Made by a program: the position numbers and the translations under genes. Below, in pieces: positions 12,691 to 40,789 of a stretch of DNA of 40,789 nt. The notes under the pieces were generated by a model. It saw only the letters and a list, made by a program, of their open reading frames with translations, searched no databases and was not told the DNA's origin. The stretch spans positions 1 to 40,789 of the IMG/VR virus record IMGVR_UViG_3300028831_000215; one strand, written 5' to 3'. Position 1 is the stretch's first letter; every line of letters begins with the position of its first letter. Origin of the DNA: a virus.

Positions 12691-12843
12691 ATCGGATTGC
12701 GGGGGCGGCGGGGCGCAAGGCACTTTGCGGGAAGGGTCGAGCGCAGGGGTGGCCTGGAAATCCCGGGTCGCAGGGAGTGACTACCAACCCGTCCGCCCCC
12801 GTAACAACATCCCGTGTTCAAAAATAATGAACGGAGGCAATTC

Positions 12844-13872
12844 GTGAACGAACCTACCTCAATCCAAAGCGCGGCGGCTTCCCCGACCGTGACCCCCAGC
12901 ACCCAGGGGGCCGCTGCGCCGTCTACAGGCATCATGTCGGGCTTCAACGATATCCAACGCATGGCGAAGGCCGTTGTCTTCTCCAGGCTCTTCCCTTCCA
13001 TCCAGAACGAGGCCCAGGCCATCACCCTCATGCTGATTTGCCAGGCCGAGGGCTTGCATCCGGTGGAAGCCTTGCGCCACTACGACATCATCCAGGGCAG
13101 AGCGGCCATGAAGTCGGAGGCGATGCTGGCGCGGTTTCAGTCTCGGGGCGGGACCGTGAAGTGGATCAAGAGCGATGCCACGGAAGCGCGGGCCTTGTTC
13201 TGTTCCCGGGGATGCCCGGAAGGATTCGAGTACGCCTACAGCATGGCGGACGCGACCGTGGCGGGGCTGGCCGGGAAGGACAACTACAAGAAGAACGGGG
13301 CGGCGATGCTCCGGGCTCGGTGCGTGAGTGGCGGTGTCAGGGCCACGGACCCGGGCGCGATCTTGGCGACTTACACGCCTGAGGAAGTTGCGGACTTCGA
13401 GCCGCCCAAGGGAAAGGCAGTGGAGCAGGCACCAGAGGGCGGGGCGCTACAACCGGCGGATCTAGGCACGCCGGATCGAAACGTGGCCCCGCCCCTGGAT
13501 GCCGAACATGAAGAGGTAGACCCCGAGGTCCCGCCAGCTGTGGGGCCCGAGGGAGAAGACGTTTCTTTGGATCGCCTCATGTCCGAAGCTGCGGCGAACC
13601 GAGCCAAGGCCGAGGCTGAGCTGGCATCGCGGCCCATCCCGGTGCCAGCCTTCATTCCGATGCACTGCAACATCTGTAAGGCCCCCGTCAAAGGCTACCG
13701 CTCCGACTCGAAGCAGTTCCCCGGCAGGATCTACTACGGGTGCGAAGCAGCACACGACTTGAAGCTGGAATTCATCAAGGAAGGGCTTACGGCGGCCAAG
13801 GCGAACGCGAAGGTAGCGGGCCATTTCAGGGAGTGGGCGGACAAGTCTACCCCGGCTGAGGTAGAGGCGTGA
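12844..13872 (+). CDS. Single-strand annealing protein (RecT-like) with a C-terminal zinc ribbon, putative
   Basis: The core AQAITLMLICQAEGLHPVEALRHYDIIQGRAAMKSEAMLARFQSRGG resembles phage RecT-type recombinases. The tail has CNICK...YYGCE. GGAGG lies 6 nt before the GTG at 12844. Confidence 0.5.
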   Translation: MNEPTSIQSAAASPTVTPSTQGAAAPSTGIMSGFNDIQRMAKAVVFSRLFPSIQNEAQAITLMLICQAEGLHPVEALRHYDIIQGRAAMKSEAMLARFQSRGGTVKWIKSDATEARALFCSRGCPEGFEYAYSMADATVAGLAGKDNYKKNGAAMLRARCVSGGVRATDPGAILATYTPEEVADFEPPKGKAVEQAPEGGALQPADLGTPDRNVAPPLDAEHEEVDPEVPPAVGPEGEDVSLDRLMSEAAANRAKAEAELASRPIPVPAFIPMHCNICKAPVKGYRSDSKQFPGRIYYGCEAAHDLKLEFIKEGLTAAKANAKVAGHFREWADKSTPAEVEA

Positions 13873-14300: not shown

Positions 14301-14557
14301 CTGACCTGATCCGCCTCGAACGAGGCATCTCCGGGGAAGACTTGCTCAGGCTCAATGGAAAGGAAAAGCGCCGGTGGGTCCATTCCTTCCGAGTGGGCCG
14401 CCCTCCCAAGTACACCGACGCGGAACGAGCGGCCCGAAGGAAGGAAGTTGCCGCCGCCCGTTACGCCAAGTGGAAGGCCAAGCAGGACCCCGAGAAGCTA
14501 CGAGCGGACTGGAGAGCGAGACAGGCCAGAAGAAAGGCGAGGAAGGCGGCGGCATGA
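14297..14557 (+). CDS. Hypothetical basic protein (86 aa)
   Basis: ATGA coupling at both ends. Confidence 0.55.
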   Translation: MTDLIRLERGISGEDLLRLNGKEKRRWVHSFRVGRPPKYTDAERAARRKEVAAARYAKWKAKQDPEKLRADWRARQARRKARKAAA

Positions 14558-15075
14558 AGCGGGCACACCGACAAGCGCGGGACCTGCTCTACGCGGCCAT
14601 CGAGAAACCCGAGGGCGAACTACGCCGGGTCGTAAAGCTCGCAATCGTGCTCCTAGGGCCTTCCGGGAAGCGCTCCAAGGCAAAGCCCCGGTCCGCCGCG
14701 ACGAAGGCTCGTAGGGCATCTGTGAAGGAGCTAGATGCCTTGTGCCGCGCCATCGTGTTTGTGAGAGACGAGCAGAAGTGCGCAAGGTGCGGGCGGCCCG
14801 CCGTGGATTGGTCGCATGTGTATTCCCGCCGCTACAAGTGGCTCCGCTGGGATTTGGACAATAGCGTGGCCTCTTGTAAGGGCTGCCACCTTCTGTGGCA
14901 TCACAAGCCCCTGGAGGGCGTGGAGTGGGTCAAGAAGCACCTGGGGCCGGAACGCTACGAACGTCTCCAGCAACGCGCCGCAAGGCCCTCCCGCGTCAAT
15001 CTGGTAGCCGTGCGAGCGTACCTAGAAAAAGAGGCTCGGGCCTTGGGTATCGAGGTCGGGGAGACGCCCAAGTGA
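14554..15075 (+). CDS. ninG: NinG/Rap-like recombination endonuclease
   Basis: LDALCRAIVFVRDEQKCARCGR...DWSHVYSRRYKWLRWDLDNSVASCKGCH follows the lambda NinG pattern (FIRxRD, CxxCG, H..R...LRF/W, CxxC). Confidence 0.6.
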   Translation: MKRAHRQARDLLYAAIEKPEGELRRVVKLAIVLLGPSGKRSKAKPRSAATKARRASVKELDALCRAIVFVRDEQKCARCGRPAVDWSHVYSRRYKWLRWDLDNSVASCKGCHLLWHHKPLEGVEWVKKHLGPERYERLQQRAARPSRVNLVAVRAYLEKEARALGIEVGETPK

Positions 15076-15549: not shown

Positions 15550-16017
15550 GTGAAGACGAGGACCGTTTGGGAGGCCGATGACGGCAGCCGCTGGGATGAC
15601 GCTGCGGCGGCCCGAAAGCGGGATGATCTCATTAAGGAAGTCGATGCGGCGATGCGCCCCCTCGGGAAACGGCATCGCGGGAAGGGGTGCGACTTCGAGA
15701 ATGGCGGGGGCTACGTGCAGCACAAGCCTAGCGCCGTGGCCGAGGCGCGGGCCAACCTCCTCGTGCCGACGCGCCGCGTGCTCGCGTGGTGGTTCGAGGA
15801 TCAGATGAAGCGGTTCAAGAAGGACCCCTCGGGCGCTGACCCTTCGTGGTTTTGTCGCATGCTCGACGGGGGCCATGCGCCCCTCGATAGAGCGTGGTCG
15901 CGCCTCATGTGCATCGACGCGAAGGGCCGCGAGTGGGGCCAGCCCTACTATGCGACCCATCCGGATGCGGCAACGCAAGTCGAAATCCGGGCGGTCGAAG
16001 CCGAGTCTCTCCGATGA
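15550..16017 (+). CDS. Hypothetical protein (155 aa)
   Basis: AAGGAAAGGAG before the GTG at 15550. ORF track frame. Confidence 0.55.
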   Translation: MKTRTVWEADDGSRWDDAAAARKRDDLIKEVDAAMRPLGKRHRGKGCDFENGGGYVQHKPSAVAEARANLLVPTRRVLAWWFEDQMKRFKKDPSGADPSWFCRMLDGGHAPLDRAWSRLMCIDAKGREWGQPYYATHPDAATQVEIRAVEAESLR

Positions 16018-16610
16018 GCGCCCCCGCCCCCAAGGTTGGGCAAATCTGGATATTGCGGCGGTTCGGGGATCGTCGCTCTGCGGGCCGTATCGAAAGAGCC
16101 GCCGGGGGAGGACAAGTGAGCGAGCACCAATCGAAGCTCCGGCCCGGCGCGAACAAGTTCCATGTCGGGAACGGATCCGACGGGCGGCACTATTGGATCA
16201 CGCCGCCCGATCTGTACGCGCGGCTTGATGCGGAGTTCGGTTTCGATTTCGACCCCTGCCCGTACCCACTCCCCGAGGGCCACGATGGGTTGACGATGCC
16301 GTGGGGTCGCAGCAACTACGTGAACCCGCCTTTCGGATCCATCTTGCACGAGGGCCGGAAGAAGGGACCGACCGCCTGGGCGCGGAAGGCTCTCGCAGAG
16401 CGCGCAGAGGGCAAGAGCACGGTATTGGTCTACCCAATCGACAAGTGGGTGCTGATGTTGCTCGCGGCGGGCGCGGAGGTCAGGAATCTAGGTGACGTGC
16501 GGTGGCTTGCAACCGAGGACGGGCTGCCGGGTAAAGGAACGGGCCGCCACATCGCAGCGTTCATTCTGCGGGCGGGAGCCGAGGCCGGGGAGAAAGAGGA
16601 GGAGCGATGA
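16014..16610 (+). CDS. dam: DNA N6-adenine methyltransferase (phage Dam type). An alternative GTG start lies at 16116.
   Basis: HYWITPPDLYARLDAEFGFDFDPCP...WGRSNYVNPPFG carries the NPPF catalytic motif. GGGGGAGGA precedes the GTG at 16116. The ATG at 16014 is ATGA-coupled. Confidence 0.75.
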   Translation: MSAPAPKVGQIWILRRFGDRRSAGRIERAAGGGQVSEHQSKLRPGANKFHVGNGSDGRHYWITPPDLYARLDAEFGFDFDPCPYPLPEGHDGLTMPWGRSNYVNPPFGSILHEGRKKGPTAWARKALAERAEGKSTVLVYPIDKWVLMLLAAGAEVRNLGDVRWLATEDGLPGKGTGRHIAAFILRAGAEAGEKEEER

Positions 16611-17219
16611 AGCCGATCTATTGGGACCCAGTATCGCAGAAATGGTACCAACTGTCATGAGCGCGGACACCCCGAGAACCGAAGGAGGTAAGCGTGGCAC
16701 CAACGCGGACGAAACCGTGAAACAAGAACGCGCGCTACCGGCGGTTGCGCAAGATCAGGCGGGCCAAGATGGCAAAATCTCAGCGGCCCCAGAAGAGAAG
16801 GCACGGACGCTGACCGATAGCGACATCGAGCACATCCTGGAGCGACTCAAGAAGATCGTCCTCGGGGACACGATCAGAGGCGTGACGCATTGCTTCTTGT
16901 ATGACTGCATCCACGCCATCGAGCAATCGCGCCGCGCCCCCGCATCTGCTTCCCCGCCCGAGCTGGAGGCGCTGAAGGAGCAGGTCAACCACTGGTACAT
17001 GCTGTATCACGCCGCCGCCGATCAGATCGAACAATCCATGGCCGCCCCTCGCTTCACACCGGAAGAACGCGAGGCGCTGGATCAGGCGGACGATGCGCTC
17101 GGCATCCAGGAGGCGCACCACTTCGGCATGAACAAGTACGAGCGCCACGCGGAAGCCTACAGAAAGATCGTCGCCGCCCGCGCCACAATCCGGGCGATGC
17201 TCTCACCCCAGGGGAAAGG
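16070..17219 (+). repeat. Cassette copy 1, bounded by and containing six exact DNA islands (A-F) shared with 18092-19265
   Basis: Islands: A 16070-16104, B 16574-16600, C 16656-16682, D 16930-16959, E 17042-17058, F 17189-17219. Confidence 0.8.
16607..16660 (+). CDS. 17-codon bridging micro-ORF (MKPIYWDPVSQKWYQLS)
   Basis: ATGA overlaps at both ends link dam to the next gene. It occupies the position that the 79-aa ORF 18524..18763 holds in the paralogous cassette. Confidence 0.35.
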   Translation: MKPIYWDPVSQKWYQLS

Positions 17220-17235
17220 TGGTGATGCGAAATGA
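16657..17235 (+). CDS. Hypothetical protein, paralog 1 (192 aa) of 18760..19278
   Basis: Shares MSADTPRT, RRAPASASPP, APRFT.EEREAL and RAMLSPQGKG with the second copy. Confidence 0.6.
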   Translation: MSADTPRTEGGKRGTNADETVKQERALPAVAQDQAGQDGKISAAPEEKARTLTDSDIEHILERLKKIVLGDTIRGVTHCFLYDCIHAIEQSRRAPASASPPELEALKEQVNHWYMLYHAAADQIEQSMAAPRFTPEEREALDQADDALGIQEAHHFGMNKYERHAEAYRKIVAARATIRAMLSPQGKGGDAK

Positions 17236-17342
17236 TCTGTCCGAGCTGTGGTCAGCCCGCTAGCGGGATGCACGTATGCAGGGGGCCGGTCACGCTTTAG
17301 GGCGGGCCGCGCATGCTCACCAACACGCGGGAGGGACCGAGA

Positions 17343-17573
17343 ATGGATGACGACAGCTTGCAGAAGGTGATCGCTGAATTGGAAACGGCGGCTTCGTTCC
17401 GACTGGACCGCCCCGACTGGCCCGTAGGGGCGCGGGCGGACGCCGAGAAGTGGGCCGCCCGCCTCTCCGCCCTGTGGGAACGGCTCCTCAAGGAAGCGAA
17501 TTGGATAGATGTTCCGCCTACTCATTCTTACGCAAACCGCCTTCGCTCCATCGCTGGGGGACAGCCCGAATGA
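17343..17573 (+). CDS. Hypothetical protein (76 aa)
   Basis: GGGAGGG lies 7 nt before the ATG. The protein ends GGQPE. Confidence 0.55.
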   Translation: MDDDSLQKVIAELETAASFRLDRPDWPVGARADAEKWAARLSALWERLLKEANWIDVPPTHSYANRLRSIAGGQPE

Positions 17574-17782
17574 AGGAGTTTCGCGTGGTGAAGGTCGATA
17601 GCGGAGAGGCGAGCATGCCGTACGTCGTGGAGTGGTATGGCGCGGACGGGCGGGCCGTCGCCTACTGCTTCCGCCGCTACGAGGCCGAGGAGATCGCCCG
17701 CCTTCTCAACGAGGGTAAGACAGCGGCGAAGTGGTACAAACGCGCGGCCACGGCCCTTTACATTGGAGGACAGCCCGAATGA
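17570..17782 (+). CDS. Hypothetical protein (70 aa)
   Basis: ATGA coupling. It also ends GGQPE, with the same 15-nt junction sequence. Confidence 0.55.
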   Translation: MKEFRVVKVDSGEASMPYVVEWYGADGRAVAYCFRRYEAEEIARLLNEGKTAAKWYKRAATALYIGGQPE

Positions 17783-17863
17783 GTTGCGTTCTTCTCGTTC
17801 CCGACGACGGTGGCCGCCTTCTTTAATCCCGAGTATTGGGCGCTCAAGCAGGTCATGCCGTGA
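17783..17863 (+). pseudogene. Orphan copy of the last 26 codons of gene 21939..22277, in frame directly behind the TGA of the upstream gene
   Basis: Encodes VAFFSFPTTVAAFFNPEYWALKQVMP, identical to the C-terminus of the 21939..22277 product. 12 codons differ, all synonymously. Confidence 0.6.
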
Positions 17864-18132
17864 CCGCCGCCGAAGCTCTGGACGTGGCGATTGAGGCGCT
17901 GACCGAGTATCCGATTGGCGACGAGCTGCCCGACGAATATGCCAACGCCGCCACCGTGGTCGCAGCCCTCCGAGATCGCCTCAAGGAAGAAGAGGAGTTC
18001 CGGGAAGCGGCCCTGCTCTACTGCGAGCGCGCCGAATCGTTCGATCATGATGCGGGCCTCATGGAAGACATGCGCGCCGCCTACCGTCGCCTCGTCGCTC
18101 TGCGGGCCGTATCGAAAGAGCCGCCGCGATGA
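17860..18132 (+). CDS. Hypothetical acidic protein (90 aa)
   Basis: GTGA overlap with the fragment stop. ORF track frame. Confidence 0.5.
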   Translation: MTAAEALDVAIEALTEYPIGDELPDEYANAATVVAALRDRLKEEEEFREAALLYCERAESFDHDAGLMEDMRAAYRRLVALRAVSKEPPR

Positions 18133-18527
18133 GCGTGCTTTGCATCGTTCTCGACGGATGGCACCTTGGCGAGACTCTAATGCTGCCCTCGCCCGCGCCG
18201 CCCTCGATCAACCTTTACCGGCCCCGCGTCGTGACGACGTGCGAGTGCAGCCCGAACGACTACTACGAGAGCGCGCCCACGAGCGCCGCCTTCGACACGC
18301 TCAAGCTGGCGTTCCGCTCCATCGACGGGGAAACAGCCCTCTACTCCACGGACGGATCGAGCCGCCCGATCACCAATCGCGGATGGGTCGCGCCCCGAGA
18401 CGGGCGGGCCATGTTCTACAAGCCGAACGACCTGCTTTACGTGGGATGCCGGGACCACAGAGCGTGGCCCGAATACAGCGCCGGGGTGGGAGCCGAGGCC
18501 GGGGAGAAAGAGGAAGCTGAGGGATGA
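18129..18527 (+). CDS. Hypothetical protein (132 aa) occupying the Dam slot of cassette 2
   Basis: The ATG lies 2 nt after island A. It shares only the C-terminal GAEAGEKEE tail (island B) with Dam. Confidence 0.6.
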   Translation: MSVLCIVLDGWHLGETLMLPSPAPPSINLYRPRVVTTCECSPNDYYESAPTSAAFDTLKLAFRSIDGETALYSTDGSSRPITNRGWVAPRDGRAMFYKPNDLLYVGCRDHRAWPEYSAGVGAEAGEKEEAEG

Positions 18528-18763
18528 GACGTGAGGGCGAGCGGGCCGCACGCAGCGGCTCAGAGGGGTCCGTCATGGGGCAACGCGAAGCCCCGCTAGT
18601 CGATCCCTTGTGCGCGGACCAGCAAGGGACAGAGCCGGGGACGCCCGGTGCCGCCCCATTTGTTGTCGATGCGGAAGCGGGCGCGAGACTCCAAGCGGTG
18701 TTACGCGGGAGGCTCGACGGCCACGAGTACATCCCTGGAAAATGGGAATCGGTGCGGCCATGA
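18524..18763 (+). CDS. Hypothetical protein (79 aa). A shorter form may start at the ATG at 18575.
   Basis: ATGA overlaps at both ends. Confidence 0.45.
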   Translation: MRREGERAARSGSEGSVMGQREAPLVDPLCADQQGTEPGTPGAAPFVVDAEAGARLQAVLRGRLDGHEYIPGKWESVRP

Positions 18764-19278
18764 GCGCGGACACCCCGAGAACCGATCTGGAGCCGAGCGA
18801 AATTGACAAGGCGTTCGGGCGGATTCTCATGTTCATAGCGGAACGTAGTGACCCGCCAAATCAAGAGTATCTGGACGCCCACAACGCGGTGGACTTCCTG
18901 CGCGAAGAACTGGACCGCCGCGCCCCCGCATCTGCTTCCCCGCCCCTGGTCGCGATAGGGGTGAAGCGGCGGCTTCAGAACGTGGCGGATTCCGAGGAAG
19001 CGCCACATGGCACGCGAGTCCTCGCCAGCGACGCCCTGGCCGCGATAGAGGCGCTGGAGCGCACCCTGGCCTGGCATCGAGACATTGCGAAAGCCGCCGA
19101 GGCGGACATCGTAGCCGCGCGCGAGCTGCTCCCCGCCCCTCGCTTCACAGAGGCAGAGCGCGAGGCGCTGACGGTCGCTATGACGGCCCTCGAACGATGC
19201 TATCAACAATCCCGCAGACGTGCCGCCGCCACTCTCCGGGCGATGCTCTCACCCCAGGGGAAAGGGAACGAGACGTGA
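18760..19278 (+). CDS. Hypothetical protein, paralog 2 (172 aa) of 16657..17235
   Basis: See paralog 1. The start lies inside island C. Confidence 0.6.
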   Translation: MSADTPRTDLEPSEIDKAFGRILMFIAERSDPPNQEYLDAHNAVDFLREELDRRAPASASPPLVAIGVKRRLQNVADSEEAPHGTRVLASDALAAIEALERTLAWHRDIAKAAEADIVAARELLPAPRFTEAEREALTVAMTALERCYQQSRRRAAATLRAMLSPQGKGNET

Positions 19279-19712: not shown

Positions 19713-20461
19713 ACGACTTGGAGTTGAGGTTCCTGCACGCACTGGCGCATGACGTGACCGACTCGTGGATGAATGGCGGCGGGATCCGGAATCGGTGCAT
19801 CGAGGCGGCCCGAACCGTCGTGGAACACCTTCCCACTCCTCCGCCAGAGCCGACGGAACGGGGCAGGCTGTCGAACAGGACGAGGATCGCCGCCGCATGG
19901 CGCTGGCTCAAGCTGGCCGAGCAGTGCAAGGAGCGCCTCGGCATGCTCCGGTACGTCCAGAAGGCCCTGTGCGAATTGGAAGGCCGCGACCACGAGACCG
20001 ACGAAGCTCCGCGACCGGGCGAGGTGCGAGGACCTGCCCTATATCCCGAACCAGTCTGCGGCGTGTGTGGCCACGACCACACCGGACCGTGTGGTCAGTA
20101 CCACAAGCCGATCGTGATTAGCGCAGATGAATACGACGTGAGCAGCGTGGAAGGAAAACTAGCCCACGCGATGGGCCTTGCCGCCTGGCTTCACAAGTAC
20201 AACTACGAGACGCCCAGGTATGCAAATCAACTGAGGCAAGCCCTGGATGAAGCCCTGCGCCTCTACCGCGATGAGCATGCCGCGTGGCATTCCGAGCGTG
20301 TGGAGCGCGTGCGCGACCAGTCGAGCAAGGCCGTGGAGTTGCGCGGCCTGAGGCTGAGGATCGAGAAGGCATGCGAATGGGCGCGCGGCTTCACGAGGAC
20401 CCACACAGACCTACTGGCGATCCTGCGGGGCACCGATACCACGAGGGAGACCAAGAAGTAG
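19709..20461 (+). CDS. Hypothetical protein (250 aa)
   Basis: ATGA coupling. ORF track frame. CGVCGHDHTGPCG. Confidence 0.55.
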   Translation: MNDLELRFLHALAHDVTDSWMNGGGIRNRCIEAARTVVEHLPTPPPEPTERGRLSNRTRIAAAWRWLKLAEQCKERLGMLRYVQKALCELEGRDHETDEAPRPGEVRGPALYPEPVCGVCGHDHTGPCGQYHKPIVISADEYDVSSVEGKLAHAMGLAAWLHKYNYETPRYANQLRQALDEALRLYRDEHAAWHSERVERVRDQSSKAVELRGLRLRIEKACEWARGFTRTHTDLLAILRGTDTTRETKK

Positions 20462-20493
20462 GCTGGGAACAACTCAGGGAGGGGGTTGGGCTG

Positions 20494-21204
20494 GTGGCGT
20501 GGATCAGGCTAGAAGAAGGCTTCAATGAGCATCCGAAGATCCTACAAGCGGGGCCGCTGGCCGTCCACCTGTGGCTTTCGAGCATCGCCTACTCCAACCG
20601 GAACCTTACGGACGGGCACTTCCCCGCGCAGCTCGCACGCTCAGGGGCCTGGGCCTTGGACCCGATCCAGCCGGAGCGGTTGATTCAGGCGCTGCTCAAG
20701 ACGGGCCTTTGGGAAGAAGCTGAGGGCGGGTACGTGATCCACAACTACCACAAGTACCAACCCTCGAAAGAGCAGGTGCTTGCGGACCGCGCCGCAGCGA
20801 AGGCACGTATGCAGCAAATTAGGTTCGGGCGAACAGGGCGCGAACGTGGCAAGAACCTAATCGACCCCGTTCCCGTTCCCGTTCCCGTTCCCGTCTCCGT
20901 TACCGATACCGAACCCGAAAAGAAAAAGCGAAAGACAGGGCGTGCGCCGTTTCAGCCGCCGTCTCTCGCTCAGGTCGAAGCCTACTGCTTGGAACGCGGA
21001 AACTCTGTGGACCCCAACTTGTGGCTAGATCACTACGCCTCCAAGGGTTGGATCGTTGGAAAAAGCCCGATGCGGGACTGGCAAGCCGCCGTCCGGACGT
21101 GGGAGCGAAACGGCATCCAGCCCAGGGCGTCCCCCGATGCTCCGTCCAGGGCGCGGCAGGTCATCGAGTACGGGCAGCGAATGAAGGCCGAGGAGGGGCG
21201 TTGA
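20494..21204 (+). CDS. Replisome organizer / DnaD-like replication initiation protein, putative
   Basis: N-terminus WIRLEEGFNEHPKILQAGPLAVHLWLSSIAYSNRNLTDGHFP. C-terminus PPSLAQVEAYCLERGNSVDPNLWLDHYASKGWIVGKSPMRDWQAAVRTWERN, a DnaD/phage-associated-type repeat. Confidence 0.55.
   Translation: MAWIRLEEGFNEHPKILQAGPLAVHLWLSSIAYSNRNLTDGHFPAQLARSGAWALDPIQPERLIQALLKTGLWEEAEGGYVIHNYHKYQPSKEQVLADRAAAKARMQQIRFGRTGRERGKNLIDPVPVPVPVPVSVTDTEPEKKKRKTGRAPFQPPSLAQVEAYCLERGNSVDPNLWLDHYASKGWIVGKSPMRDWQAAVRTWERNGIQPRASPDAPSRARQVIEYGQRMKAEEGR
20866..20901 (+). repeat. Tandem hexanucleotide repeat (CCCGTT) x4 plus degenerate units, encoding a (PV)n linker
   Basis: Read directly. Degenerate units continue to about 20919. 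Confidence 0.85.
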
Positions 21205-21719: not shown

Positions 21720-21907
21720 GCGCTCTTGTGGCTGATCGAGGAGAAGACGTTCAAGAGGCCCGACACGAACATGACGATCTCAAGGCCCGTCGGGGGCCAG
21801 GTGTGGCCAGCGGCGTAGGTCTGGATGTAGGTCACAACGGACATGACGACAGCGGCGATACCGGGGAGCGTGGTCCAGAGGTCTTTCAGGCGGTCACTGA
21901 GAGTCAA
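21716..21907 (-). CDS. Small two-TM membrane protein (63 aa), holin-like, antisense to the early arm
   Basis: LPGIAAVVMSVVTYIQTYAA and GLEIVMFVSGLLNVFSSI. High GC at third positions. TTG start. Confidence 0.5.
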   Translation of the reverse strand: MTLSDRLKDLWTTLPGIAAVVMSVVTYIQTYAAGHTWPPTGLEIVMFVSGLLNVFSSISHKSA

Positions 21908-21938
21908 AGCAGCATCAACCTTTCAGGATGGAGGGTGC

Positions 21939-22277
21939 GTGAACAAAGAGACGGTGGATCTCATCCGTGATCTGGCGGCGAAGCTCGGAACCACGGCGGA
22001 GCATCTTTGGGGCGTGCTCTTGAGGCAGGCTCCAATCTCTGGCGCGACGGATCTGATGCAGTACGCCCTTCTAGCAGTCGCGGTCGCGCTCTGGTGGAAG
22101 TGGGTCAAGGCCACGAAGAAGAGAGGGCAGTACAGAGACGAGGCGGCCTGGATTCCGGTCGGCACTGTCGGCGTGGCTCTCGCCGTCATGGTTGGAGTAG
22201 CCTTCTTCAGCTTCCCAACGACTGTCGCTGCCTTCTTTAATCCTGAATATTGGGCGCTGAAGCAGGTGATGCCCTAG
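21939..22277 (+). CDS. Two-TM membrane protein (112 aa), holin-like
   Basis: GTG after GGAGGG. LMQYALLAVAVALWWKWV and IPVGTVGVALAVMVGVAFFSF. Confidence 0.55.
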   Translation: MNKETVDLIRDLAAKLGTTAEHLWGVLLRQAPISGATDLMQYALLAVAVALWWKWVKATKKRGQYRDEAAWIPVGTVGVALAVMVGVAFFSFPTTVAAFFNPEYWALKQVMP

Positions 22278-40063: not shown

Positions 40064-40789
40064 TCACGTAAGGTGCTGAACCGCGAGATCGCGGCCCGTC
40101 GCGCCGTACGTGGTGTTCGAGTGCGCGGACTTAGCGCCCCAATTGCAGTAGGCGTAGACCTTGGTGATCAGGTCCTGCCGGTCCGTCTCGATCTTCGCGT
40201 CGTACTTCTTGCCCCAGACGATGGCCTTCTTCGCGGCCACCAGATTCCGGCGTCCCGAAGACGACAGCACGTTGCCGGTCAGGATGATGTCCCCGCCGTA
40301 GATCGTCGGGATCTTGCCGTTGACCGCAGCGCCCGGACCCGTTCCACGGACCGCAGCGTTCACGATGTCCGGGAAGGAGAGAATCGAGTCCAACTGCGCC
40401 AAGTCATAGATGCCGACGAAGGGGTCTCCATCGGTCATCTTGTCGCGGGCGTTGACCCGGAGACGCCGGAGCGCCAGGAGGAAGTTCGCCAGCGTGAAGT
40501 TGGTGCCCGAGGCCCCCACGTTGTCCGAGGCGTTGAACTCGGAATAGAGGTTCAGGATGTCGATTTCCAAGCCCTGGTAGACCGCTTCCGCCAAAACCGG
40601 GACATAGGCGTCCGCCAAGTTCGACACCGAGAAGTCCATCAGATCGGGCTCGATCGTGATGTTGACGGCCTTCAACGTCTGGGTCAGCGTGATCGCCAGA
40701 GAGGTGATCGACGCAGCCGTGTTGACCGATCCGCCAACGGACCAGGACTTGAGATCCGAGCCCGCCGCCCAGGTGCCGGGGGAGCCCGC
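40064..40789 (-). CDS. Major capsid protein, C-terminal part. It runs into the terminal repeat and continues at 1-327.
   Basis: ORF 40064..40675 stays open upstream to the window end and joins 1-327 in frame. The total is 303 aa. Confidence 0.75.
   Translation of the reverse strand, partial: AGSPGTWAAGSDLKSWSVGGSVNTAASITSLAITLTQTLKAVNITIEPDLMDFSVSNLADAYVPVLAEAVYQGLEIDILNLYSEFNASDNVGASGTNFTLANFLLALRRLRVNARDKMTDGDPFVGIYDLAQLDSILSFPDIVNAAVRGTGPGAAVNGKIPTIYGGDIILTGNVLSSSGRRNLVAAKKAIVWGKKYDAKIETDRQDLITKVYAYCNWGAKSAHSNTTYGATGRDLAVQHLT
40649..40789. repeat. Second copy of the 141-bp terminal direct repeat
   Basis: Identical to 1-141. Confidence 0.95.

Follow-up and report, generated by a model that had tools for sequence, protein, structure and literature searches.

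Short identical DNA islands around unrelated genes in a phage early region: probable linkers for short-homology exchange

Gene cassettes and sequence islands

We studied the IMG/VR virus record IMGVR_UViG_3300028831_000215, a phage genome of 40,789 nt (this whole stretch is referred to as the window). Two tandem cassettes of small genes, at 16070-17219 and 18092-19265, are connected by six short stretches of identical DNA, which we call islands A to F. The first cassette comprises a predicted Dam-type DNA methylase (cargo 1), a bridging open reading frame (ORF) of 17 amino acids (aa) and a 192-aa partner protein. In the second cassette an unrelated 132-aa protein (cargo 2), a 79-aa ORF and a 172-aa member of the same partner family follow one another. 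All features lie on the plus strand unless stated otherwise.

Island A covers 35 nt (16070-16104 and 18092-18126), B 27 nt (16574-16600 and 18488-18514), C 27 nt (16656-16682 and 18759-18785), D 30 nt (16930-16959 and 18916-18945), E 17 nt (17042-17058 and 19133-19149) and F 31 nt (17189-17219 and 19235-19265). E can be extended to 38 nt at 89% identity, with copy 1 reaching 17079, and F to 44 nt at 91%. The six repeats had been reported in an earlier reading of the sequence alone (the first-pass annotation), and we found all of them to be exact, maximal and colinear. The only other long repeats in the window are a 141-nt terminal overlap and one 79-nt repeat at 84% identity. The longest exact repeat measured 35 nt in the real sequence compared to 14-18 nt in 30 dinucleotide shuffles of the genome. 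As the shuffled genomes reach 18 nt at most, chance is excluded as the origin of the islands.

The lengths of the segments between the islands differ between cassettes 1 and 2, with 469 and 361 nt for A to B, 55 and 244 nt for B to C, 247 and 130 nt for C to D, 82 and 187 nt for D to E and 130 and 85 nt for E to F. When aligned, these segments behaved like shuffled sequence (z = -0.6 to 0.8) with the exception of the segment between E and F (z = 3.2). The description of the cassettes as colinear yet mostly divergent is thus borne out, and uniform divergence, which had been named as an outcome that would undo the observation, is not what the alignment gave. The 872 nt between the cassettes are unique sequence with genes of their own.

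Cargo 1 is encoded at 16116-16610 (164 aa). We assign it to the Dam-type N6-adenine DNA methylases based on family membership (phrog_111, E = 2.8e-13) and the catalytic (D/N)PP(Y/F) motif, here NPPF; its score against the Pfam Dam family (PF05869) is 19.9 bits and lies under the cut-off of 28.1. It shares 64% aa identity over 162 aa with the annotated N6-adenine methylase of Bradyrhizobium phage ppBjS10J-1. The last 12 codons form the tail AGAEAGEKEEER, which comes from island B and its flanks. Copy 1 of B thus supplies the C-terminus of the cargo and the Shine-Dalgarno (SD) region of the next gene. The latter is the 17-aa ORF (16607-16660), which overlaps its neighbours by ATGA at both ends. 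Copy 1 of island C holds the stop/start overlap and the first 8 codons (MSADTPRT) of the gene for the 192-aa protein (16657-17235), and D, E and F lie inside that gene. In cassette 2 the 132-aa protein (18129-18527) contains cysteines and ends in the tail ...GAEAGEKEEAEG from copy 2 of island B. It is followed by the 79-aa ORF (18524-18763) and the gene for the 172-aa protein (18760-19278), which carries islands C, D, E, F and a further island, G (19022-19062, ALAAIEALER). The calls for the 17-, 192-, 132-, 79- and 172-aa products agree with those proposed before; the start of the Dam gene had to be moved to 16116.

As had been noted, islands A, B, C and F sit at gene boundaries, where each spans a stop/SD/start junction. 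Island B does give two non-homologous proteins the same tail: the Dam protein and the 132-aa protein have nothing in common beyond nine residues, which B encodes.

Reading frames and level of conservation

The similarity between the Dam gene and its Bradyrhizobium phage counterpart covers 16125-16570 at the DNA level, and at the protein level it stops at ...FILR just before the tail. It opens at residue 4 of the product starting with GTG at 16116, and the annotated relative starts at the equivalent point. Since the homology begins there, we take GTG 16116 as the start of the gene and not ATG 16014. It follows that copy 1 of island A lies in a non-coding spacer of 98 nt (16018-16115). Translated in frame after the stop of the upstream gene, this spacer reads ...GSGIVALRAVSKEPPGEDK up to a TGA that overlaps the GTG of the Dam gene, and its translation (...IVALRAVSKEPPGEDK followed by the stop) corresponds to the truncated 3' end of a gene of the 90-aa family. 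Copy 2 of island A forms the 3' end of the complete 90-aa gene (...RRLVALRAVSKEPPR and stop). Copy 1 preserves the remnant of such an end, truncated but in the same frame. The earlier claim of two different frames for island A rested on the ATG at 16014 and has to be given up.

The accompanying conclusion, that the islands are conserved as DNA, stands on other grounds. All complete codons within the islands are identical between the copies (51/51) including the wobble positions, for which we calculated P ~1e-22 given the amino acids and the codon usage of the genome. The identity is therefore one of DNA. From the coordinates the codon phase is equal in both copies of every island, so that any crossover between the two copies of an island leads to an in-frame hybrid. 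A by-eye search for a recognition site common to all islands yielded only SD-like purine runs. The tetranucleotide GATC is the usual target of Dam-type methylases, and one GATC at 16068-16071 straddles the non-homologous joint at the left edge of copy 1 of island A; this is probably a coincidence.

An internal control shows the opposite pattern. The 26-aa peptide VAFFSFPTTVAAFFNPEYWALKQVMP, followed by a stop, is encoded twice, at 17783-17863 and 22197-22277. Of its 81 nt, 16 differ between the copies, and all 16 differences are silent; here the silent sites diverged, which argues that both copies are translated. The copy at 22197-22277 is the C-terminus of a 144-aa membrane protein (21843-22277, phrog_1486). 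The other copy has no start codon of its own and follows in frame directly after the TGA (17780-17782) of a 70-aa gene. Read-through of this TGA may add a hydrophobic tail to the 70-aa protein.

We then have to ask if the cassettes could be an ordinary tandem duplication with uneven divergence, in which the islands are the most constrained protein motifs. Islands C to F indeed encode motifs common to all or most members of the partner family, and the interval between E and F retains detectable similarity. However, constraint on the protein cannot hold 51 codons identical at their wobble positions. The other intervals are at the level of shuffled sequence with lengths up to four-fold apart, the Dam and 132-aa proteins belong to different families, each with its own relatives elsewhere, and copy 1 of island A is non-coding. 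We regard a simple duplication as very improbable. Ordinary diverged paralogues were also considered and rejected: there is no graded similarity along the unit, and the synonymous sites within the islands have not diverged.

Islands in other contigs

The first-pass annotation had suggested searching metagenomes for the islands around other cargo genes. This search was positive for two contigs: L101 (JGI sample 3300064757, 4,690 nt) and L102 (ENA ERZ27256700, 1,098 nt). Two more contigs, L103 and L104, are Logan assemblies, and L103 contains only a diverged island E. In L101 we found island A twice (35/35 and 33/35 identical positions), B (27/27), C (25/27), D (29/30) and F (31/31), as well as a partial B, named B', at the stop codon of a C5-cytosine methylase gene. 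The identity extends over 49 nt for copy 2 of island A (L101 1261-1309) and over 41 nt for copy 1 of island B (L101 2556-2596). L102 has islands C and D with 1-3 mismatches and island G. A blastn comparison of the whole window with L101 gave patches of 19-58 nt and nothing longer, and the flanks on either side of each patch are unrelated in every copy.

The window and L101 also share islands G, H, I, J and K. Island I (17856-17882) holds a GTGA stop/start overlap and the first 7 codons (VTAAEAL) of the 90-aa gene (17860-18132) and occurs at both genes of the 90-aa family in L101. Island H (17960-18011, LRDRLKEEEEFR) lies in the middle of this gene, and copy 2 of A forms its end. The 90-aa protein shows 44-45% aa identity to its two paralogues in L101, mostly due to the islands. 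Island J (17326-17366) comprises an SD sequence, an ATG and the first 8 codons (MDDDSLQK) of a 76-aa gene (17343-17573) and is identical to L101 3498-3538 (41/41). The proteins are unrelated after MDDDSLQK: in the window a soluble 76-aa protein follows and in L101 a 57-aa membrane protein. Island J resembles a portable start of translation to which different genes have been joined. Island K (TGGgGGACAGCCCGAATGA, which encodes GGQPE and a stop and includes an SD sequence and an ATGA) is present at 17555-17573 before the 70-aa gene (17570-17782) and again at 17764-17782; the same junction occurs twice in L101, before two other genes.

The islands follow the order A B C D E F / J K K / I H A B C D G E F in the window and I H A B' I H A B C D G F J K K in L101. 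The genes of L101 are a RusA gene, a 59-aa gene, a 113-aa member of the 90-aa family with I, H and A, and the C5-cytosine methylase with B'. Then come a 96-aa member of the 90-aa family, again with I, H and A, an 84-aa Cys-rich protein with the B tail and a 72-aa ORF. A 154-aa member of the partner family with C, D, G and F, a 77-aa zinc-finger-like protein and the membrane protein with J follow, and a 179-aa protein with a DPPY motif and a 70-aa protein, each with K, complete the contig.

The slot between A and B therefore holds four unrelated genes: the Dam and 132-aa genes in the window and the C5 methylase and 84-aa genes in L101. According to an all-versus-all blastp comparison these four cargos have nothing in common except the tail encoded by B. 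The 227-aa cargo of L101 was identified as a C5-cytosine methylase with 30.6 bits against a Pfam cut-off of 22 and by phrog_363 (E = 9e-35). The same short sequences thus flank non-homologous genes in different genomes, between A and B and also at J and K, which stand before unrelated genes. The combination of islands varies within the partner family as well: the 172-aa, L101 and L102 members have G, which the 192-aa protein lacks; F occurs in L101 and in the two window copies and is missing from L102; E is confined to the window copies.

For both cargos of the window the similarity to outside relatives stops at the islands. The 132-aa protein has eight homologues, all with different tails, and its gene is similar to the closest one (L099) with 81% at the DNA level over 18129-18476 only, that is from the ATG to just before island B. 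The contexts of four homologues (L090, L098, L099 and L100) are free of islands.

Several observations concern the other cargos and their neighbours. At L101 2013-2054 the C5 methylase gene stops at a TGA that stems from a change of GGA, the codon with which island B begins, and what is left of the degraded B' occupies the 35-nt spacer after the gene; B' shows a linker in the course of decay after the appearance of an internal stop. Between L101 and L102 the C5 methylases share 70% aa identity, and mismatches are spread over the whole DNA alignment, as in ordinary divergence. In L101 (1336-2019) the gene follows island A, but in L102 (673-1098) it directly follows the 3' end of a gene of the 192-aa family; because the neighbours differ, this cargo has also moved between different junctions. 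The protein with the N-terminal DPPY motif (L101 3711-4250) is 63% identical to one in L090 (1153-1674). The L090 gene lies directly upstream of, and overlaps, the homologue of the 132-aa gene of the window. This family of 173-179 aa has no Pfam or PHROG match and may be an undescribed small DNA methylase.

The occurrence in other contigs also bears on the quality of the assembly. Two strain variants joined in tandem, or collapsed repeats, might mimic such a locus; the window comes from a metagenome assembly, and its terminal overlap of 141 nt suggests a de Bruijn assembler with k = 141. The islands, however, are with at most 35 nt far below this k, and the 872 nt between the cassettes are unique. 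Moreover, the same islands were recovered in contigs from other samples and pipelines, and L101 again has two tandem units bearing island A. An assembly artefact is scarcely credible on these grounds.

Proposed recombination and alternative explanations

Seven of the eleven islands (A, B, C, F, I, J and K) span a stop/SD/start junction. The limits of the identity depend on the pair of copies compared. Island A gains 14 nt on its left side when window copy 2 is set against L101 copy 1 and in no other pair, and 4 nt on its right side only when window copy 1 is compared with the L101 copies. For B the identity runs 10 nt further to the right only between window copy 1 and L101, and for C 6-7 nt further to the left in three of four copies. 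Such pair-specific edges are expected for crossover points rather than for a fixed element.

The first-pass annotation had offered shared cis-elements as one explanation. The islands would then be sites for translation initiation or coupling, or for a regulator or antisense RNA, kept by purifying selection, and recombination would be incidental. Several features fit this idea: A, B, F, J and K end in purine-rich SD-like runs, C, I, J and K hold a stop/start overlap, and K stands before four different genes. Compared to shuffled sequences, folding is poorer for B and F (z = +1.15 and +1.20), as expected for open ribosome-binding regions. On the other hand, D, E, G and H lie inside genes and far from any start, and a ribosome-binding site takes ~6-10 nt and not an identity of 27-49 nt at every wobble position. 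The varying edges do not suit a fixed element either. Rfam gave no match at E = 1 or better for 14-23 kb, and no island folded better than its shuffles (z = -0.3 to +1.2). Promoter- and terminator-like sites were no more common than in shuffled sequence, and none lay on an island on the gene strand: the 5.5 kb scanned contain a single promoter-like site and three that resemble terminators, and all four are on the minus strand. Selection on cis-elements accounts for the persistence of the islands and not for the unrelated flanks on both sides. We consider this explanation unlikely as a whole. The idea of structured RNA, promoter or terminator elements is weakened, and a role in translation initiation is likely part of why the islands persist, since the boundary islands contain SD, stop and start signals. 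Neither the internal islands nor the extent of the identities can be accounted for by that role.

A further possibility is that illegitimate joints arose in many places and survived only at gene boundaries, with the islands as leftovers of a recent duplication or transfer that later joints happened to spare. The joint at 16069/16070, the left edge of copy 1 of island A, connects a truncated gene end to unrelated DNA without homology, in line with this model. The 132-aa gene was found in four contexts free of islands, and in the three that are similar enough (L099, L100 and L090) the DNA match is confined to the gene itself. Boundary sequences are moreover absent from most mosaic joints (PMC3029335). 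Random joints should not, though, leave the same sequences of 27-49 nt around four cargos in two contigs or eleven shared islands in conserved order, and chance sparing would not keep four in-frame islands inside one gene family. As the origin of the islands we therefore hold random joining to be quite improbable.

Two other mechanisms were tried and rejected. A diversity-generating retroelement does not fit because the two copies depart from each other in whole segments, unequal in length and impossible to align, and agree exactly in the islands; no reverse transcriptase was found among the ~35 window proteins scanned, a scan that is not exhaustive for the window. Integron-type cassettes were discarded as the islands show no inverted repeats and no hairpin signal; no integrase family was matched among the proteins scanned, again not an exhaustive set.

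We regard as shown the islands themselves, the identity of their DNA, their recurrence beside unrelated genes in contigs of independent origin and a gene with RecT-like similarity. The reading that we favour is that the islands are probably position-specific linkers for short-homology recombination, through which accessory genes and domain segments would be shuffled. The linkers would lie where a join is harmless, either at gene junctions (A, B, C, F, I, J and K) or in short in-frame stretches that lie between a protein's structural elements (D, E, G and H). Co-infecting related phages, or the two tandem cassettes within one genome, could recombine in patches of 25-50 bp. The likely enzyme would be the phage's own RecT-like single-strand annealing protein (352 aa, 12814-13872; phrog_561 'RecT-like ssDNA annealing protein', E = 3e-13), which is a candidate for short-homology exchange. 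Each exchange would swap the unrelated DNA between two linkers and leave frames and translation signals intact. Repeated exchange would keep the linkers identical to the letter by concerted evolution, and the DNA between them would be free to change or to be replaced. The interval between A and B would then be a slot for interchangeable accessory genes, two of them predicted DNA methylases of different classes. The tandem layout might most simply have arisen from an unequal exchange that put a second set of slots beside the first, and the truncated end of the 90-aa gene at 16018-16115 would be its scar. With 27-35 nt in the genome and up to 49 nt between contigs, the islands reach or exceed the shortest segments that pair efficiently, given as 23-27 bp for Red-beta and 31-34 bp for RecA (PMC3945230).

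A number of points weigh against recombination at linkers. Only three sequences are informative: the window, L101 and L102. Scans for one or more of the exact cores of A (the 35-mer and a 24-mer core), B, D and H found none in IMG/VR, JGI contigs or GTDB, a result that says little because those collections hold neither the window nor L101. The K junction gave two matches in IMG/VR, both chance matches of low GC content, and a blastn search of the A, B and D regions against GenBank phages returned chance-level hits only (E = 0.05-0.9). The Pfam scan had no match for the RecT-like protein, so that its assignment depends on one PHROG match. We infer recombination at the islands from comparison of sequences, and the same applies to the responsible enzyme, the origin of the duplication and the order of events. 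The non-homologous left edge of copy 1 of A means that illegitimate recombination has also acted here. Furthermore, the boundary islands overlap translation signals and purifying selection could explain part of their conservation. Finally, direct repeats of 27-35 nt would be expected to be unstable with a recombinase gene nearby, unless the duplication arose recently or is under selection.

The first-pass annotation went one step further and spoke of a built-in cassette-exchange scaffold. The linker part of this proposal is supported; for 'built-in', in the sense of selected for exchange, the data are explained equally well if the linkers are a by-product of recombination that reinforces itself. 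We think it improbable that ordered, position-specific junctions of 25-50 bp together with an annealing protein form a maintained scaffold and a site of high-frequency shuffling. With tandem sets of slots and in-phase islands, six kinds of in-frame hybrid or deletion as well as excised circles could arise in each burst. If the scaffold were real, phages would possess a counterpart of integron cassettes or pilin mini-cassettes that works independently of a recombinase, and it would reassort methylases and other counter-defence genes across the phage population.

Partner family and genome context

Between the 192-aa and 172-aa proteins an alignment exists only at the islands and in their vicinity. 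When 5.8 billion protein clusters were searched with a word index, nothing but the query itself was returned. HMMER with a two-sequence profile against 1.84 billion representatives found two real relatives (P0013 and P0014) and a partial one (P0016), and a four-sequence profile added no further relatives. The contigs L101 to L104 are those on which these relatives are encoded. The partner family thus has four members among ~15 billion proteins. The back-translated alignment of the two proteins had no relatives in IMG/VR or GTDB, and an exact look-up of the 192-, 172- and 132-aa proteins found none on record. Pfam and PHROGs gave nothing significant for the 192-, 172-, 132-, 79-, 90-, 76- and 70-aa proteins. 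AlphaFold models were too poor for fold searches (pLDDT 38 for the 132-aa and 54 for the 192-aa protein). The low-confidence model of the latter is all-helical, and islands D (RAPASASPP) and E (APRFT) fall at predicted helix breaks. Of the anti-restriction or anti-defence module suggested earlier, the part concerning the methylases (Dam and the C5 methylase of L101) is reasonable; for the 132-aa protein and the 192/172-aa family, which have no annotated relatives and no usable structure models, nothing points to such a role.

The interval between B and C holds three small ORFs that are unrelated to one another. The 17-aa ORF occupies the same position as the 79-aa ORF of the window and the 72-aa ORF of L101 and is unrelated to both (blastp, all against all). 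The 79-aa ORF has a weak coding signal (GC at the three codon positions 0.75/0.57/0.69). The interval between B and C may be filler rather than a conserved gene. Just past copy 1 of island F a possible Cys-rich ORF of 22 aa (17232-17300) can be translated, though this call is uncertain. In L101 the position after F is occupied by the 77-aa protein, zinc-finger-like by its PHROG matches, which is unrelated to the 22-aa ORF according to blastp.

The window is a circularly assembled phage genome in which bases 1-141 are identical to 40649-40789, an exact terminal direct repeat. As these ends coincide, the unit length is 40,648 bp; the overlap probably reflects the k = 141 of the assembler. The GC content is ~63%. 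The portal protein and the large terminase are encoded on the minus strand. The early region is on the plus strand between ~9.6 and 22.3 kb and includes, besides the RecT-like gene, a dATP/dGTP diphosphohydrolase-domain protein, a NinG/Rap-like junction endonuclease (14554-15075; phrog_5034, E = 1.7e-12) and a replication initiator (20458-21204). The NinG/Rap-like gene marks this as a nin-like early region, and the cassette locus itself is a nin-like run of small genes coupled through ATGA and GTGA overlaps. No close relative of the window was found among 50,697 GenBank phage records; the sole sizeable DNA match in the region is that of the Dam gene, 70.8% identical to Bradyrhizobium phage ppBjS10J-1. 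At the right end of the duplicated region lies a widespread phage protein (19275-19712; phrog_419, E = 1.2e-29). Of its 592 relatives in IMG/VR, the 80 loci kept had no islands at 2-4 mismatches, and neither did 88 IMG/VR loci with relatives of the flanking genes.

Comparison with known systems

The origin of mosaicism in phage genomes is an old open question, with exchange at linkers (Botstein) on one side and filtered illegitimate joins (Hendrix, Hatfull) on the other. The working view of the field is that linker sequences are mostly absent. To this view the window locus is an unusually clean and dense counter-example, with at least eleven ordered, near-identical junctions in 3.3 kb, which recur in independent samples and accompany at least four unrelated genes. 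If crossovers do occur in the islands, the locus would be a tractable system for measuring linker-mediated exchange. It could then be used to test if linkers are selected for evolvability or merely sharpened by recombination, and it could reveal how phages counter host restriction by reassorting methylases that differ in specificity. A simple rule to search metagenomes for exchange slots would also follow, namely to look for short exact repeats that are in phase and lie at gene junctions. Orphan DNA methylases of phages serve against host restriction. Two of the four cargos between A and B are stand-alone genes of this kind, predicted as a Dam-type N6-adenine methylase in the window and a C5-cytosine methylase in L101.

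Linkers of lambdoid phages (Susskind & Botstein 1978; Botstein 1980) are cited as 'short conserved boundary sequences', and boundary sequences are not detectable at most mosaic boundaries (PMC3029335). The locus is similar in that short conserved sequences mark the edges of modules in a nin-like early region and non-homologous alleles occupy the same position. It differs in having at least eleven linkers in 3.3 kb, some of them intragenic, and both alleles in tandem in one genome. Clark and co-workers reportedly documented boundary sequences of the nin region in 2001 (phage HK620).

Phage recombinases of the Rad52-like and RecT type act on short or diverged homologies, and exchange of ~100-bp pieces within genes is frequent (De Paepe et al. 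2014, PMC3945230). The likeness lies in the combination of an annealing protein and short homology, here a RecT-like gene and islands of 27-49 nt. However, that system concerns diverged homologues that can be aligned, whereas the flanks in the window are unalignable and homology is restricted to the islands. In the mycobacteriophage Island3, genes 67 and 68 share ~18 C-terminal residues and ~50 bp, which was interpreted as the result of past recombination between short stretches of sequence (Pope et al. 2011, PMC3029335). This is the same picture as for island B, but it is a single joint in one genome pair and not an ordered, reused array.

The islands inside the partner genes have counterparts too. 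Conserved motifs are said to mediate recombination in the tail-fibre genes of T-even phages (Tetart and co-workers, 1998), and the pilE/pilS mini-cassettes of Neisseria have short conserved motifs which allow segments to be swapped. In both cases in-frame motifs separate hypervariable segments, as C, D, G, E and F do here. Tail fibres and pilins vary surface adhesins under known selection, unlike the 192/172-aa family with no assigned function.

The closest described system is the PeSL cassette of the T4-type phages RB49 and phi1, for which experiments demonstrated crossovers and mini-circles (Arbiol et al. 2010, PMC2839356). There, too, short conserved sequences border non-essential genes, include the stop of the upstream gene and the SD sequence and start of the downstream gene and serve as 'linker sequences' at which unrelated ORFs are inserted, deleted or replaced by homologous recombination (PMC2839356). 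This was proposed as a realisation of Botstein's modular theory that needs no dedicated recombinase (PMC2839356). PeSL elements are one repeated family of intergenic motifs with a sigma-70 promoter and a stem-loop terminator (PMC2839356). The window locus, in contrast, has almost no intergenic DNA and no promoter, terminator or hairpin signal; each junction has its own sequence and several linkers lie within coding sequence. Because the junctions differ in this way, exchange would preserve the order of the genes. PeSL crossovers have been demonstrated, whereas those in the window are deduced from its sequence. The idea of linker-mediated exchange is already known; the probable linkers of the window differ in being promoterless, specific to their junction and partly intragenic.

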